Source: Gammaproteobacteria bacterium (GTDB lineage Bacteria; Pseudomonadota; Gammaproteobacteria; CAJXQU01). Taken from it: a stretch of DNA of 64,000 nucleotides. Of this stretch, positions 2,843 to 10,301 are shown piece after piece. The stretch covers positions 1,280,001 to 1,344,000 of the forward strand of contig CBDEGZ010000003.1 of NCBI GenBank assembly GCA_965238175.1. The letters are read 5' to 3'. The first letter of the stretch is position 1; the number at the start of each line of letters is the position of its first letter. A program made the translations under genes and the position numbers. Under the pieces are notes generated by a model. The model did not search any database. It was not told the DNA's origin and was given only the letters and a program-made list of their open reading frames with translations.

Positions 2843-3093
2843 CTTTGATTTGCCCCGATTTATTGAGTGCTAATCTTTAATCAGATTTTCTTTTTGCAAT
2901 ATTTTTTACCTGGGTACGAATAAAACGGGGAGAATTCAGTTTCAAAAAAGCCTGGTCAGTTTGATTGGATAACCTCTATAATTTATAGATAAACAAGCTG
3001 ATTTTTACACAGGCACTGAATTTAGTTATAAAGGCACATCACCTGTTTTTGTCATGTTACTAATGCTCTCCTTGTATAGGGCTCTTTTCGATT

Positions 3094-3130
3094 AAAAAAT
3101 ACCCGACAGCACAAGAAATACTGTCGGGTA
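3094..3130 (-). terminator. Rho-independent terminator of the PHP-like gene
   Basis: Stem TACCCGACAG/CTGTCGGGTA with A6 at 3094-3099 (U-tract on the minus strand). Confidence 0.75.
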
Positions 3131-3169
3131 AAAAATAAATTATTCATCTTTTATTTTTACTCTTACTCT

Positions 3170-4414
3170 TTAATTCTGTGCATCTACCCACAGAGGCCCT
3201 TTTATAGCCTGTGGCCAGGCCCGTTTGCGTGTATCTATTGGATCCAGAGCCTGGAAACGGATCCAATAGAAATCTTCCCAACCTGTATCAAGTGAAAAAG
3301 TAGTTTCGCCCTTGCTCTTGGGCATAACACCATTAACACGAACCTTATCCGTTGCAGAATCTTCCGGCTTGATCCCTTTACGTGCAATCGCCTCCATAGA
3401 ATATTGCCAAATGACCTCACTGTCTCCTGAATTGAGTGTTACCGTCCTGTTCGCTGCGTTATATACGACAGCACGTTTTGACTCATGAAGACTTAGCCCG
3501 CTACTTGCGTAAAAATCACCTGCTCGTAACGCGAGAAGAATCCCCGACCCATTAATTTCATCGTTTTCACTCGATGCCGGCCCCTCAAACTCCTCCACCC
3601 ACACATGAACAGAACCTATTGGATTATTCTTGAGCTCATCGAAGCTGTAGTCAGGACTCCAAAAAGAATCATTACCGGCAATGGCATGAAGATAGGTGCC
3701 ACGACTCAATAACTCATCAATAAGCCACTCACCATATTCAAACTGATAAGGCGTAGGTTTTCCTTTAATCGCTGCTAACTGACTGAAGCTATTAAAAATT
3801 TCCACACCCATCACGTCGAAATTAGTATAGAGTGGCTCCTTCGATTGGATGCTCCAAAGCATATTTTCCCACGTGTTATTGTCCTTATAAACAGGGACAC
3901 TTTCATTCTCACGTTCGAAAATATTGTAATACAGGGGGTGTACGATATAGGAATAAGTCGAAAACGTATCACTATGTGACTTTATCTGATTAACATGGAT
4001 AAACTGGCCACGTCTGTTTTCTGTAGAAAAGTAGCCCTTCCAATCGGCTTCTGGATCAATATCAAGATCCGGATCTGCCAGTTGCTGGGGGGTCCAGTCC
4101 CATAAATTATTTTGTAGTTCACGTGCCACCATTCCTACCATAGGAGATTTATGTGTATCAGCTTCCCAAAGACCAAAATTACCATCTTTTAATTTTCCGC
4201 TGCTGTCTGCATGTTGCGGTTTATATACATGTGGTCCACATGCAATAAAATCATATTTAGTAGGATAATCAGGATCATCTGCCAGTGTATGCGCAGCTTT
4301 AAAAACATCTGACATTGAATCTGCACCATATATATCTTTATAGGTTCCAGTTTCATACACTATTGAATGGCAGTGAATTGCGCCTACAACGGTTTTGGTT
4401 TTAAGAGCTACCAT
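3170..4414 (-). CDS. PHP-fold (CehA/McbA-like) metallo-phosphoesterase-like protein with atypical motifs
   Basis: GAIHCHS, YDFIACGPH, IVHP, GVEIFNS, AIAGNDSF and L.AL..GDFYASSG follow the PHP motif order; SD-like GAGGGG upstream. Confidence 0.65.
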   Translation of the reverse strand: MVALKTKTVVGAIHCHSIVYETGTYKDIYGADSMSDVFKAAHTLADDPDYPTKYDFIACGPHVYKPQHADSSGKLKDGNFGLWEADTHKSPMVGMVARELQNNLWDWTPQQLADPDLDIDPEADWKGYFSTENRRGQFIHVNQIKSHSDTFSTYSYIVHPLYYNIFERENESVPVYKDNNTWENMLWSIQSKEPLYTNFDVMGVEIFNSFSQLAAIKGKPTPYQFEYGEWLIDELLSRGTYLHAIAGNDSFWSPDYSFDELKNNPIGSVHVWVEEFEGPASSENDEINGSGILLALRAGDFYASSGLSLHESKRAVVYNAANRTVTLNSGDSEVIWQYSMEAIARKGIKPEDSATDKVRVNGVMPKSKGETTFSLDTGWEDFYWIRFQALDPIDTRKRAWPQAIKGPLWVDAQN

Positions 4415-4514
4415 AATAAATTCCCCTCACTTAATGTAATGTTGTTGTCATTATCGAGATTGACAATGTCATGATAAAGATTATGTGATTTTAATACTGT
4501 GGGACACGGCAAAC

Positions 4515-4551
4515 CTGTAGGCAAAAGTGTACTTAAAACTGTTGGCAAAAG
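4515..4551. promoter_or_regulatory. Imperfect 13-bp direct repeat, candidate operator upstream of the PHP gene
   Basis: CTGTAGGCAAAAG (4515-4527) and CTGTTGGCAAAAG (4539-4551), 24-bp period. Confidence 0.35.
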
Positions 4552-4589
4552 AGAGGTGGTGGTGCGAAAATCATATATGGTCTCCTCCC

Positions 4590-4819
4590 GTATTGCAAGA
4601 TAAAACATTCAGATAACAGGGACAGGATTGCTGTCATATATACGGCCTTCAATGAAGTTTTCAACTTCTGACCTGGATGTATTACGCGCCTATTTTCCTT
4701 ATCAGGTTATCGGTATTAGTTACCCCTGAGCTCGACAGGTTTTCAATAGGCTGGTTTGACCTGTTATGCCATCTTTAGTTTTACCTTCGCAATTCGTTGA
4801 AATGATTTGTTCTCTCTAT
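4590..4819 (-). ncRNA. Predicted bridge RNA/seekRNA of the IS1111 element
   Basis: Non-coding end contains exact copies of the target flank (ATCAGGTTA 4701-4709 = 5915-5923) and the donor end (TCATATAT 4634-4641 = 4571-4578) in hand-folded internal loops; RNA ends are approximate. Confidence 0.75.
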
Positions 4820-5833
4820 TTAGGCCGGTGAGTAGTCATCACCAGAAACCGTTATAGCCCAGGCCATTCTTGCCATTTTGTTGGCATACGCCACACACGC
4901 TCGATTATGCCCCCGCGTCTCAACTAAACGATTAATCCATTGACTCAGTTTATCGCCTTTCGTTTTGGCTCTTGATACCACGGCCTTCGCGCCTAGAATT
5001 AACAAACAACGAAGGTATTTATTGCCGCGTTTACTGATCCCCAGTAGCACCTCTTTACCACCACTACTGTACTGTCGTGGAACAAGTCCTAATGAGGCGG
5101 ACACATCGCGCCCTTTGTGATAATGAGCGCCGTTTCCCACTTCATTAAAATACGCGCTCGAGACCATCGGCCCAAACCCTGGAATAGTTTGTAAGCGTTG
5201 GCAAATCGCATTGTTTTTTGCCGATTGAATGATCAATTGGTCAAATGTCGCAATACAGGCATCAAGTGATTGCCATTGTTCCTTTAGCTGGCGCAGTATC
5301 CTTTTGAAAGTAACGGACAACCGTTCGTTCTCATCACTTAATAGCAACGGGATAGATTGACGTAGGGTATTTAGGCCGGGACGAAGGCTAATGCCATATT
5401 CTGCAACAAGCGCTCTCATTTGGTTACATAATGCGGTTCTTTGTCTGACCGCTAAGTCTCTTGCTTTATGTTGTGCCTGGTTGTCTTGTTGCTCAACTGA
5501 TTTAATGCCCACACTTTTTAAATGAGGTTGTTTCGCAGCAACGGCGATGGCCAAGGCATCGTTATAATCATTCTTATTGCCGATTAGAAATGCGTTAACA
5601 TGCTGAGGTGGTAGTAATTTCACCTGATGTCCCTGTTGTTGTATCGCTCGGGCCCAATACTGTGACGTTGCACAAGATTCTATTGCGACTAAACAAGGAG
5701 GTTGAGATTGAAAAAAGGAGAGTACCTGCGCTCGCTTTAACATTTTCTTTTTGATTATACGCCCTTGTTGATTACAGCAGACAGCATGAAATACGTTTTT
5801 TGCTATGTCTAACCCGATTGTTGTAGTCTTCAT
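4820..5833 (-). CDS. IS110-family DEDD recombinase/transposase, apparently intact
   Basis: GLDIAK, IESC and KNDYNDA (DEDD residues) and LGLVPRQYSSGG (catalytic Ser); start ATG 5833 behind AGAGGAG. Confidence 0.95.
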   Translation of the reverse strand: MKTTTIGLDIAKNVFHAVCCNQQGRIIKKKMLKRAQVLSFFQSQPPCLVAIESCATSQYWARAIQQQGHQVKLLPPQHVNAFLIGNKNDYNDALAIAVAAKQPHLKSVGIKSVEQQDNQAQHKARDLAVRQRTALCNQMRALVAEYGISLRPGLNTLRQSIPLLLSDENERLSVTFKRILRQLKEQWQSLDACIATFDQLIIQSAKNNAICQRLQTIPGFGPMVSSAYFNEVGNGAHYHKGRDVSASLGLVPRQYSSGGKEVLLGISKRGNKYLRCLLILGAKAVVSRAKTKGDKLSQWINRLVETRGHNRACVAYANKMARMAWAITVSGDDYSPA

Positions 5834-6019
5834 TTTGGTCTTCTCCTCTTTTGATTGTGTGTATGTCAGTTCAATCATGGCACCTAGATGCCGTTAGGGG
5901 GAGGAGACCATCACATCAGGTTAGCTCATCAGGGGCTGTTGATCGTTCATTTTTGTCACTAATTCTATCGAACCTGCCTTGGCAGAATACATAGTGTTGT
6001 GCGAAGTAATTGATACAAT

Positions 6020-6982
6020 TTAATGATGTAAAATCCAGGGAACGATTTCAGCAAGATCGTCATTCTCAACGACAACATCGGATAAATCTTTATGTGTAAC
6101 ATAATTCGGTTGGCAGGCAATGGTGAGTCCTGCTGAATTAACGACTGATTTGCCAGCAAAAGCTGCGCCTACGAATGCACAGTTGCTAGAGGAGATCCCT
6201 TGATCCCTGCAAATATATTCAATACCCCGTGACTTCTCATCAAGATCGTAGGGTGTTGGCGTAATAGACTGAAGAGATCCCCTGTTATCATATTTAAATC
6301 TATTGATGAATATATAATCGAATAGCCAGTAACAGTCCGGGATCATTATTTCCAGCAACGTATCTATACCTCCGGAAATAATAGCAGTTCGTACTCCTGA
6401 TAATTTTAACTGGTCCAGTGTTTTATAGAGATTATTTGTTACGTGGGTAGTCTGGGAAATAAGGTGAAAGTCTTTTTTTGATAATCCATAATCGATAAAG
6501 TATTTTCCGCAATATACACACCATTCCTCATAGTTAATCTTGCCGGTATAAAAAAGTTTAAGCCCCCTTTTCCTGAGTTCTCCGTTGTCACCAATAAATT
6601 CCCAAACCAATCGCCAGGAGAAATCAAACCCTTTTAACAATGTTCCATCTAAATCAAAAATAACCAACTTTATTTTATCTGTTGTTTGTTCAAATTTTAT
6701 TGCTTCTTTCTTAATTGGGCCGTCAGTTTTTTTATACAGAGACAGGAAAATTTCACCGATACTTTCAGATGGACTCAGTATGATGTCATTCCAACTTTCA
6801 AGCCCGAATCCCTTTGCAATTAATTCTAAACTTCGTTTTTGAGGTCTGAGCGTTTTGCCTGATTCCCAGAGATGATATTGTTTTCTATCAACGCCGCCAC
6901 AAGCAGTACCTGCTTCTTCCTGAGACCACCCATTTTTACAACGCAGCCAATATAACTTTTCTTTATATAATCTCCATTTCAT
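6020..6982 (-). CDS. XRE-family HTH fused to a HAD (phosphoserine-phosphatase-like) domain with degenerate motif IV
   Basis: N-terminal LR.KNGWSQEEA...WESG HTH; HAD motifs FDLDGTL, ISGG and Lys, but FVGAAFAG in place of GDGxND. Confidence 0.8.
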   Translation of the reverse strand: MKWRLYKEKLYWLRCKNGWSQEEAGTACGGVDRKQYHLWESGKTLRPQKRSLELIAKGFGLESWNDIILSPSESIGEIFLSLYKKTDGPIKKEAIKFEQTTDKIKLVIFDLDGTLLKGFDFSWRLVWEFIGDNGELRKRGLKLFYTGKINYEEWCVYCGKYFIDYGLSKKDFHLISQTTHVTNNLYKTLDQLKLSGVRTAIISGGIDTLLEIMIPDCYWLFDYIFINRFKYDNRGSLQSITPTPYDLDEKSRGIEYICRDQGISSSNCAFVGAAFAGKSVVNSAGLTIACQPNYVTHKDLSDVVVENDDLAEIVPWILHH

Positions 6983-10086: not shown

Positions 10087-10301
10087 TGAGTATGGGATCC
10101 AGTAAAATACTAACAAATTTTGTCTGGTTGATTTTGGTCTACGTTCCTTTTTGTGCGTGGTCTGTTGGACAAAACAGTCACCGTGTTTTCATCTAATTTA
10201 TTGTATTTTGCTGAGTAATTTGAGATTTATAATATTTCAAATTGTGAGGCCAAACATAACTAAATTTTCAGACTCTCAGTTTCAACTTGAGTTAGTTTAA
10301 A

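Follow-up and report, generated by a model that had tools for sequence, protein, structure and literature searches.

The window analyzed here, a stretch of 64,000 nucleotides (nt) from a Gammaproteobacteria bacterium (GenBank assembly GCA_965238175.1, contig CBDEGZ010000003.1, positions 1,280,001 to 1,344,000), carries on its minus strand an intact and recently expanded insertion sequence (IS) of the IS1111 group of the IS110 family. Coordinates are those of the window unless they are preceded by C3, and all features of the element are given on the minus strand. With a copy of a TG core at each junction the element occupies positions 4572..5918, as delimited by the junctions of 25 genomic copies, by empty sites and by the junctions of relatives; its body (5916-4574) measures 1343 bp, or 1345 bp with one core counted. 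As far as they can be read from sequence, all the features which define the IS1111 group are present, as are the sequence-level features of a bridge or seek RNA. We are confident that this is an intact and recently expanded element of that group which combines a recombinase of the DEDD/serine type with an RNA of two loops, one reading the target and the other the donor. The kind of element is already known, the corresponding NCBI family model calling such proteins RNA-guided, and nothing about it is new in kind.

The transposase gene (4820..5833) was defined by open reading frame (ORF), domain and family searches. The ORF list gives 352 amino acids (aa) from an upstream ATG, and a product of 337 aa starts at the ATG at 5833 which follows GAGGAG (5848-5843). 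The protein matches the Pfam domains PF01548 (DEDD_Tnp_IS110, 3.2e-16) and PF02371 (Transposase_20, 6e-20) and scores 302.9 bits against the NCBIfam model NF033542, "IS110 family RNA-guided transposase", which has a cut-off of 140. Residues D9, E52, D89, D92 and S257 are all in place, and among 50 relatives with an ORF of more than 300 aa they were kept in 48, 49, 49, 49 and 46 proteins, respectively, the other four having T at the position of S257. The GL-P----S(T)G motif of the PF02371 domain, by which the IS1111 group is recognized, is present as GLVPRQYSSG and includes S257. We take the catalytic serine of IS621 to be S241. The C-terminal domain of the protein aligns to the IS621 transposase (PDB 8wt6) with an E value of 2.3e-4, S257-G258 falling on the Y-E-S-G motif of IS621. 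An earlier reading of the window made from its letters alone (hereafter the sequence-only reading) had proposed an intact IS1111 recombinase with its DEDD residues and catalytic serine, and these searches bear it out. An exact look-up of the 337-aa protein in a protein collection gave no match, the 352-aa form not having been looked up.

Read on the minus strand from 5923 to 4564, the ends of the element run GCTAACC-TG-ATGTG-ATGGTCTCCTCC ... GGAGGAGACCAT-ATA-TG-ATTTTCGC. On the left side the target half TAACC (5923-5919) precedes the left-junction core TG (5917..5918), which is followed by the terminal extension ATGTG (5912..5916), representing the right half of the donor, and by the left subterminal inverted repeat (sTIR) ATGGTCTCCTCC of 12 bp (5900..5911). 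On the right side the sTIR GGAGGAGACCAT, also of 12 bp (4577..4588), leads into the terminal ATA (4576-4574), the right-junction core TG (4572..4573) and the flank ATTTTCGC (4571 downward), which departs from the consensus of the flanks of the other copies. Both sTIRs and the short extensions ATGTG and ATA fall within the range of the IS1111 group (sTIRs of 7-17 bp with short terminal extensions), and, again as in that group, the larger of the two non-coding regions is the one behind the transposase gene, with 246 nt from the stop codon (ending at 4820) to the right end at 4574 versus 83 nt upstream (5916-5834). The ends shared by 60 elements of the family read [flank]-YG-ATGxx-ATGGTCTCC ... 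GGAGACCAT-ATA-YG-[flank], the left extension being ATGxx throughout.

All of the strings on which the sequence-only reading was built, i.e., the junctions, four proposed guide matches and a GCCTATT/AATAGGC stem (4751-4744 with 4695-4688), lie where it had placed them, including the left junction GCTAACC-TGAT-GTG-ATGGTCTCCTCC (5911-5900) and the right junction GGAGGAGACCAT (4588-4577)-ATA-TGAT-TTTCGC. The 4-bp core TGAT which it deduced from these junctions did not survive, as the four-base repeat holds for the window copy only. All 24 available right flanks start with TGA and their fourth base varies (A 19 times, G 3 times, and C and T once each, the T belonging to the window copy), while among relatives with the same ends TG is followed by TTAAC in L034 and by GGTAT in L035 and L036. 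Only the dinucleotide TG is thus common to the junctions and forms the crossover core, TGAT being an accident of the window copy.

When the genome (3.35 Mb in 3 contigs, 40% G+C on the large contig) was searched by BLAST, 31 matches were obtained. Of these, 25 are copies of nearly full length which share about 100% identity and an intact ORF, one being truncated at the start of a contig, and 6 are fragments. The left flank was TAACCTG in 24 of the 25 copies and AAACCTG in the remaining one, with the DNA beyond it differing in all 25. Unoccupied sites (TAACCTGAACTCGGG) were identified as TAACCTGAACTCGGGATAAG at C3:123564 and, on the minus strand, at C3:467766, and as TAACCTGAGCTCGGGG at C3:393936; as these empty sites carry TAACCTG, this sequence belongs to the target and not to the element. 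The most frequent right flank was TGAACTCGG (8 of 24; TGAACTCGGGATAAG when written with the core), of which the TGATTTTCGC of the window copy is an outlier. In this comparison with other copies, which the sequence-only reading had suggested as a check, its proposed target TAACC[TGAT]TTTCG was right for the left half and untypical for the right half. TAACC[TG]AACTCGGGATAAG, which is usually targeted, forms the terminal inverted repeat of a repeat of about 215 bp resembling a miniature inverted-repeat transposable element (MITE), and the preferred target extends over about 22 bp as TAACC[TG]AAYTCGGGATAAGAA. This MITE-like repeat is bounded by inverted repeats of about 22 bp (TAACCTGAAYTCGGGATAAGAA) and is present in 9 copies of at least 150 nt, for example at C3 2509893-2510109 and 1507014-1507235, with a partial match of 44 nt in the window at about 10166-10209. 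A second unit was found to share the ends of the repeat with a different interior. Among the 20-mers with up to 4 mismatches to the end of the repeat, 12 out of 37 are occupied by the IS at exactly the same position, and such use of a single position in a repeated target is characteristic of the IS1111 group.

These copies also bear on the possibility that the anatomy described here is correct but that the element is now inactive, its 25 copies having been spread by duplication or by homologous recombination. The right flanks shared by several copies do lie in other repeats, and the sampled words of the element are nearly missing from other samples assigned to the same species, although this is not proof of absence. 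Against it stand the left flanks, which differ beyond TAACCTG in every copy, the near-identity of all copies with an intact ORF and the repeated occupation of one position in the MITE-like ends, and we hold this explanation to be most unlikely. An empty counterpart of the insertion in the window was sought with the left flank 5915-6400, and no match was found in 20 other genomes, six of which are of the same genus.

The long non-coding region downstream of the transposase gene was analyzed across 80 related transposases from a genome collection which are 49-78% identical to that of the window, the closest coming from Halioglobus, Colwellia, Shewanella frigidimarina, Pseudoalteromonas and Paraglaciecola. 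Of the resulting 81 elements (the one in the window and the 80 relatives) 60 had both sTIRs and enough flanking sequence and 21 were dropped. The 60 were collapsed to 52 distinct guide pairs, and the alignment (A1) contained 51 rows after omission of L065, which has a large deletion in the 3' region. The consensus computed by RNAalifold consists of an outer stem, a stem closing a large internal loop which contains a small hairpin, and a second internal loop which contains a stem-loop; the helices ATGACA/TGTCAT and ACAGG/CCTGT were added from the fold of the element itself before pairs were counted. Over 43 pairs in 9 helices and 51 sequences 95.6% of the cells were paired, as against 34.5-38.3% with the partners slid by 1-3 columns. 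In 24 of the 43 pairs both sides had changed in a compensatory manner, and none of 500 shuffles reached any of the five measures used. The minimum free energy fold of the single sequence (-61.3 kcal/mol; z -2.91, a moderate gain over shuffled sequences) pairs parts of the loops unlike the family consensus, and the latter was used in preference. A hairpin GGU/ACC drawn by RNAalifold (columns 52-54 with 58-60) competes with the helix ACAGG/CCUGU; the helix is paired in 93.7% of cells and only the helix was counted.

Placed on the window, the region of the predicted RNA (4593..4792) is taken from the UUGCGA (4792-4787) of the outer stem to its partner UUGCAA (4598-4593), on the basis of fold, consensus and pair counts. 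The stem that closes the target loop has its 5' half, GCCUAUUG, at 4744..4751 and its 3' half at 4695-4688; it is helix 4 of the consensus, with compensatory changes in all 8 pairs and 99.0% of cells paired, and corresponds to the GCCTATT/AATAGGC stem of the sequence-only reading. Next to it lies the near-invariant scaffold AAAACCUG (4736..4743), whose CCU pairs with AGG (about 4699-4697) in helix 5 (99.3% paired), and the small hairpin of the target loop (GGUA..UACC, 4712..4724; helix 6) has changed on both sides in 4 of 4 pairs. The stem-loop within the donor-binding loop (4644..4673) is made up of GGUC..GGCC and GAAG..CUUC, which are helices 8 and 9. A terminator-like hairpin, GACAG/CUGUC, was also considered and set aside, as it seems, by inspection of the alignment by eye, unable to form in the more distant relatives.

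The large internal loop contains two segments which read as target guides. The right target guide CGAGCUCA (4727..4734) pairs with the top strand TGAGCTCG, matching the empty site at C3:393936 in 8 of 8 positions and the commonest flank in 7 of 8; taken as the 9 nt which follow AAAACCUG, it reads UCGAGCUCA (4735-4727), the reverse complement of the core plus right flank, and agrees with the majority flank in 7 of 9 positions. The left target guide UAACCUG, which can be extended by AU (4701..4709), has the same sequence as the top strand over the left target half and core, and as the 9 nt which precede AU(A)AGG it reads GAUAACCUG (4711-4703), agreeing with left flank plus core in 8 of 9 positions. 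Within the genome, sites matching the right guide in at least 6 of 8 positions make up 17 of the 24 occupied sites but only 17 of 491 unoccupied TAACCTG sites (Fisher P = 2e-17), with AAACCTG as the left half of one occupied site and several right flanks located in other repeats.

In the family the columns of both guides follow the flanks. For the statistics 7 positions per guide were used, the two core positions being excluded, and in the row of the element itself the most frequent flank among the 25 copies stood in for the right flank of the window copy. Over the 52 distinct guide pairs, agreement of a guide with the flank of its own element amounted to 258 of 364 cells for the right guide (shuffled mean 114, standard deviation 8.9) and to 255 of 364 for the left one (shuffled mean 103, standard deviation 8.9), values which none of 10000 shuffles reached in either case; when restricted to 26 guide sets differing at more than 6 of 18 positions the agreement was 122 (right) and 128 (left) of 182 as against about 50. 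Individual right guides illustrate this, such as AUAUACCCA against TGGGTATAT in L036 and AUUAACCCG against CGGGTTAAT in L067 (both 9/9), or AUAACCUCA against TGAGGTTAA in L031 (8/9), as does the left guide of L034 (GAUAACUUG against CCTAACTTG, 7/9). L031, whose transposase is 77% identical to that of the window, has the guides AUAACCUCA and CGAUCUG and sits in CAGATC[TG]AGGTTAA. L033 from Shewanella frigidimarina KCTC 23109 (transposase 76% identical) has the same left guide as the studied element and a right guide, GCGAGUUCA, which differs from UCGAGCUCA at 2 of 9 positions.

The four matches from which the sequence-only reading had started fared unequally. In 5000 shuffles of the 230-nt region the target top strand was matched exactly over 9 nt in 1.0% and the donor top strand over 8 nt in 6.8% of cases, while a 7-mer with up to one mismatch to the bottom strand of the target arose in 99% and a 5-mer matching the bottom strand of the donor in 98%. 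GAAAACC and ACATC are thus at chance level and uninformative when taken alone, and it was the family comparison that settled both. TAACCTGAT (4709-4701) was correctly recognized, as it is the left target guide according to both the flanks of the copies and the covariation in the family. GAAAACC (4744-4738), proposed to read the bottom strand of the target, is conserved in nearly all 60 sequences whatever their flank and is partly paired scaffold (CCU-AGG), a match lying in a stem being what the sequence-only reading itself had named as a refutation; the real guide lies 3 nt further 3', at 4734-4727. Nor can the right flank of the window copy be taken as a sequence specified by the RNA, since the true guide matches it in 4 of 8 positions only. 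The wider proposals of that reading, a two-loop RNA in the 3' region with loops matching target and donor and a specificity that can be reprogrammed, gained support from covariation in 51 relatives and from relatives which keep the scaffold but have different loops that match their own flanks, the latter on comparative grounds.

The same observations weigh on the simplest alternative, in which the protein alone recognizes the target, the 3' region is an untranslated region or terminator and the matches to the flanks are due to chance or are relics. It gains from the chance level of two of the four original matches and from the absence of RNA runs in the public listing. It does not account for loop columns which track the flanks over 52 distinct relatives while the stems keep their pairing through compensatory changes, or for transposases which are 77% identical and yet occupy different sites that match their different loops, and we regard it as highly improbable.

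The second internal loop was examined in the same way. Its right donor guide UACAUC (4676..4681) pairs with G plus ATGTG of the left end, the last pair being a G-U wobble, and in the family the corresponding segment changes with the left extension, being UACAU with ATGTR, YUCAU with ATGAR, UCCAU with ATGGA and ACCAU with ATGGT. The left donor guide (G)UAUAUAUG(A) (4634..4643) is identical to the right end ATA plus the core TG, and its segment is ATATATG with a TG core and ATATACG with a CG core, agreeing with the right-junction core in 48 of 52 relatives. Since the columns of the second loop follow the ends of the elements in this manner, it is the predicted reader of the donor, i.e., of the abutted ends of the circle. 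In this loop both earlier assignments stood: ACATC (4680-4676) as a donor guide, despite its chance-level match, through its tracking of the left end across the family, and ATATATGA (4641-4634) as what is now called the left donor guide.

Closure of the circle may also create a promoter. A simple scan identified TTGCAA (4598-4593) as a -35 hexamer which is separated by a 17-nt spacer from TATGAT, a -10 hexamer which runs from the right end through the core into the beginning of the left end (4570..4598; 9 of 12 matches), and this was the sole promoter-like site on the strand of the element. The -35 hexamer is at the same time the 3' half of the outer stem of the RNA, and in the family alignment this hexamer and its spacing have been maintained. 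TTGCAA-17-TATGAT is likely to be a circle-junction promoter. A promoter of this kind, named Pjunc, is reportedly the subject of a paper on ISEc11. The candidate fits the junction promoters described for the IS110 family in excerpts of PMC11208160.

Taken together, structure and the covariation of guides with flanks mark the 3' region, at the level of sequence, as a two-loop bridge or seek RNA. We propose that the DEDD/serine recombinase would act together with a structured RNA, about 200 nt in length, whose sequence lies between the stop codon of its gene and the right sTIR. One of its two internal loops, in which the guides overlap at the TG core, would read the preferred landing site in the terminal inverted repeat of the MITE-like element. 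In the donor loop UACAUC and AUAUAUG would likewise read the excised circle at the point where its ends abut (..CCATATA-TG-ATGTGATGG..). By analogy with published work on ISEc11, ISPa11, ISKpn4 and IS621, the RNA would be transcribed, would bind to the protein and would direct recombination.

One variant of this proposal differs in the nature of the guide, which, instead of RNA, could be a single DNA strand from the end of the element, in a DNA-DNA reading like that of IS200/IS605-type elements. Covariation alone cannot separate an RNA from the DNA strand of the same sense. The G-U pairs which are frequent on the strand of the element (at columns 68/122, for instance, UA 17, UG 17 and CG 17) favor RNA, as does the co-purification of related IS1111 transposases with RNA from the non-coding region, which is required (PMC11187229, in excerpt), and a DNA guide appears very unlikely.

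A number of observations nevertheless count against an RNA-guided element as proposed here. No sigma-70-like promoter was found upstream of the RNA by the simple scan, and there is no evidence of transcription, the public listing for the organism being without RNA runs. No circle-junction molecule was seen, the contigs of four runs over 3900-6600 covering the body of the IS only, neither its flanks nor a joint across it, and thus being uninformative on circle or empty site. An Rfam scan of 4300-6200 with E values up to 10 returned no matches, the content of Rfam 15 for bridge RNAs of the IS1111 type not being established. Among relatives some matches are poor on one side, such as the left guides of L035 and L036 (5/9) and the right guides of L105 and L106 (2 and 1 of 9), and in the genome 7 of 24 copies, including the window copy (4/8), match the right guide in no more than 5 of 8 positions. 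The 25 copies are also not fully independent of each other, as several right flanks lie in other repeats. For the low matches either the right half is loosely read or the flanks were altered later; several of the copies concerned abut other IS.

The two junctions of an element do not always carry the same core. The dinucleotides of left and right junction differ in 19 of the 52 distinct relatives (L051, L056, L058, L059, L065, L076, L077, L083, L085, L086, L088, L093, L094, L100, L103, L105, L107, L108, and L109), 17 times by a single transition (12 times TG versus CG and 4 times TA versus TG), while the studied element has TG on both sides. The core positions of the left target and left donor guides (LTG and LDG) agree with the right-junction core in 48 of 52 relatives and with the left-junction core in 34 of 52. 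Together with the essentially invariant left half-site and the low right-guide matches in the genome, this raises the idea that the clade preserves natural footprints of a strand-asymmetric transfer, with the top strand transferred first or exclusively, and of half-site targeting. We consider it rather doubtful, and put it forward only tentatively. Insertion of the top strand versus dual-strand exchange through a Holliday junction is currently debated (bioRxiv 10.1101/2025.10.25.684509, in excerpt), and, if the idea were true, the comparative genomics of this clade could inform the dispute over the mode of transfer as well as off-target rules for bridge recombinases.

The closest parallels among described elements are ISEc11, ISPa11, ISKpn4 and ISPst6, which, according to excerpts of Siddiquee et al. 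2024 (PMC11187229), likewise have sTIRs and a long non-coding region downstream of tnp, their transposases being 330-350 aa long and sharing the GL-P----S(T)G motif. In IS1111 seekRNAs the match to the top strand lies 5' of that to the bottom strand and the two overlap in the target (PMC11187229, in excerpt), the same order as observed here, and natural retargeting as between the studied element and L031 was described in the same source for ISEc11 versus ISXne4. For ISEc11 an RNA of roughly 80-100 nt which represents the target loop has been reported. Targets and sTIR sequences differ from those of the ISEc11 group, a comparison made by description and not by sequence alignment, and while the excerpts of PMC11187229 describe target matches only, the studied element also shows a donor-reading loop. 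The only enterobacterial relative compared was L111, an unnamed transposase of the IS110 family which is encoded by an IncHI2A plasmid and is 43% identical in protein to that of the window. It is also the transposase of the best record in a distant search of a plasmid collection, which gave 54 records, none covering at least 80% of the query and the best matching the 3' region only (70.7% identity); the ends of this element were not found with the sTIR pattern used. A full-text literature search for the sTIR strings yielded only unrelated primers among the matches listed.

IS621 (PMC11208160, in excerpt; PDB 8wt6-8wt9) resembles the studied element in its two-loop RNA, with left and right target guides (LTG/RTG) and left and right donor guides (LDG/RDG) which read opposite strands including a dinucleotide core, in its DEDD and serine recombinase and in a promoter rebuilt across the circle junction. 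In contrast, the excerpts place the RNA of IS621 in the left end upstream of the gene, with a reversed order of guides, a CT core and subterminal repeats of 2-3 bp, whereas the studied element has its RNA in the right end, a TG core and sTIRs of 12 bp; similarity between the proteins is confined to the C-terminal domain. For IS1111 elements a bridge RNA was predicted in the right end in 93.0% of cases (Durrant et al. 2024, PMC11208160, in excerpt). ISPpu9 and ISPpu10 of Pseudomonas putida, also of the IS110 family, insert into repetitive extragenic palindromes and have a small RNA gene downstream of the transposase (PMC12288879, in excerpt); for ISPpu9 that source mentions additional, solo copies of the RNA gene, whereas a BLAST search of the genome yielded no solo copy of the 3' RNA region of the studied element. 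With regard to target choice, IS4321 and IS5075 of the IS1111 family likewise use a single position within terminal inverted repeats which belong to a different mobile element. Their targets, reportedly described by Partridge and Hall in 2003, are said to be the 38-bp repeats of Tn21-family transposons, where here it is the repeat of a MITE-like element of about 215 bp.

At the locus itself the IS lies between two genes which are transcribed in the same direction on the minus strand (3170-4414 and 6020-6982). The upstream neighbor encodes a protein with a helix-turn-helix, recognized by eye, and a region like HAD-IB phosphatases (TIGR01491, 2.5e-20, below the cut-off of that model); the downstream neighbor encodes a protein of 414 aa with a weak match to CehA/McbA metallohydrolases, and the candidate junction promoter in the right end points towards it. 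Other IS are abundant in the genome. The right flanks of the copies at C3:945279, 2865993 and 2278726 (minus strand) abut a repeat of about 59 copies which starts with TGTAGAAGTTTAGACCC, and the copies at 1050199, 1390025 and 3326129 (minus strand) lie 37 bp from another of about 58 copies which starts with TGTAGAAATTCAGA. Solo or degenerate fragments of the left end of this IS or of a relative (L026-L030; 72-100% identity, 40-390 bp) were found at C3:2357911-2358383, 1154716-1154798, 2897431-2897503 and 1393274-1393339, two of them overlapping head to head. One copy of the IS sits between paralogues in L011 (L011:1-560, 3057-3680 and 3923-4348; C3 about 1220830-1225177), where tandem genes encode small secreted proteins with a PEP-CTERM-like tail (..VSEPSTMALMGLGLLGL..RRK..) that was recognized by eye.

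RNA-guided recombinases of the IS110 and IS1111 type are under development as tools for programmable insertion into genomes. For the annotation of this genome, the present analysis explains 25 insertions and identifies the MITE-like repeat as their landing pad. For the family, the relatives constitute a natural data set in which one scaffold with the same sTIRs and stems is combined with at least 26 clearly different guide sets and their cognate flanks. To this are added a donor loop which follows the variants of ends and core and a genome of 25 copies with mapped empty sites and graded mismatches in the right half. Such a set is useful for working out guide rules and mismatch tolerance in IS1111, the less-studied branch.

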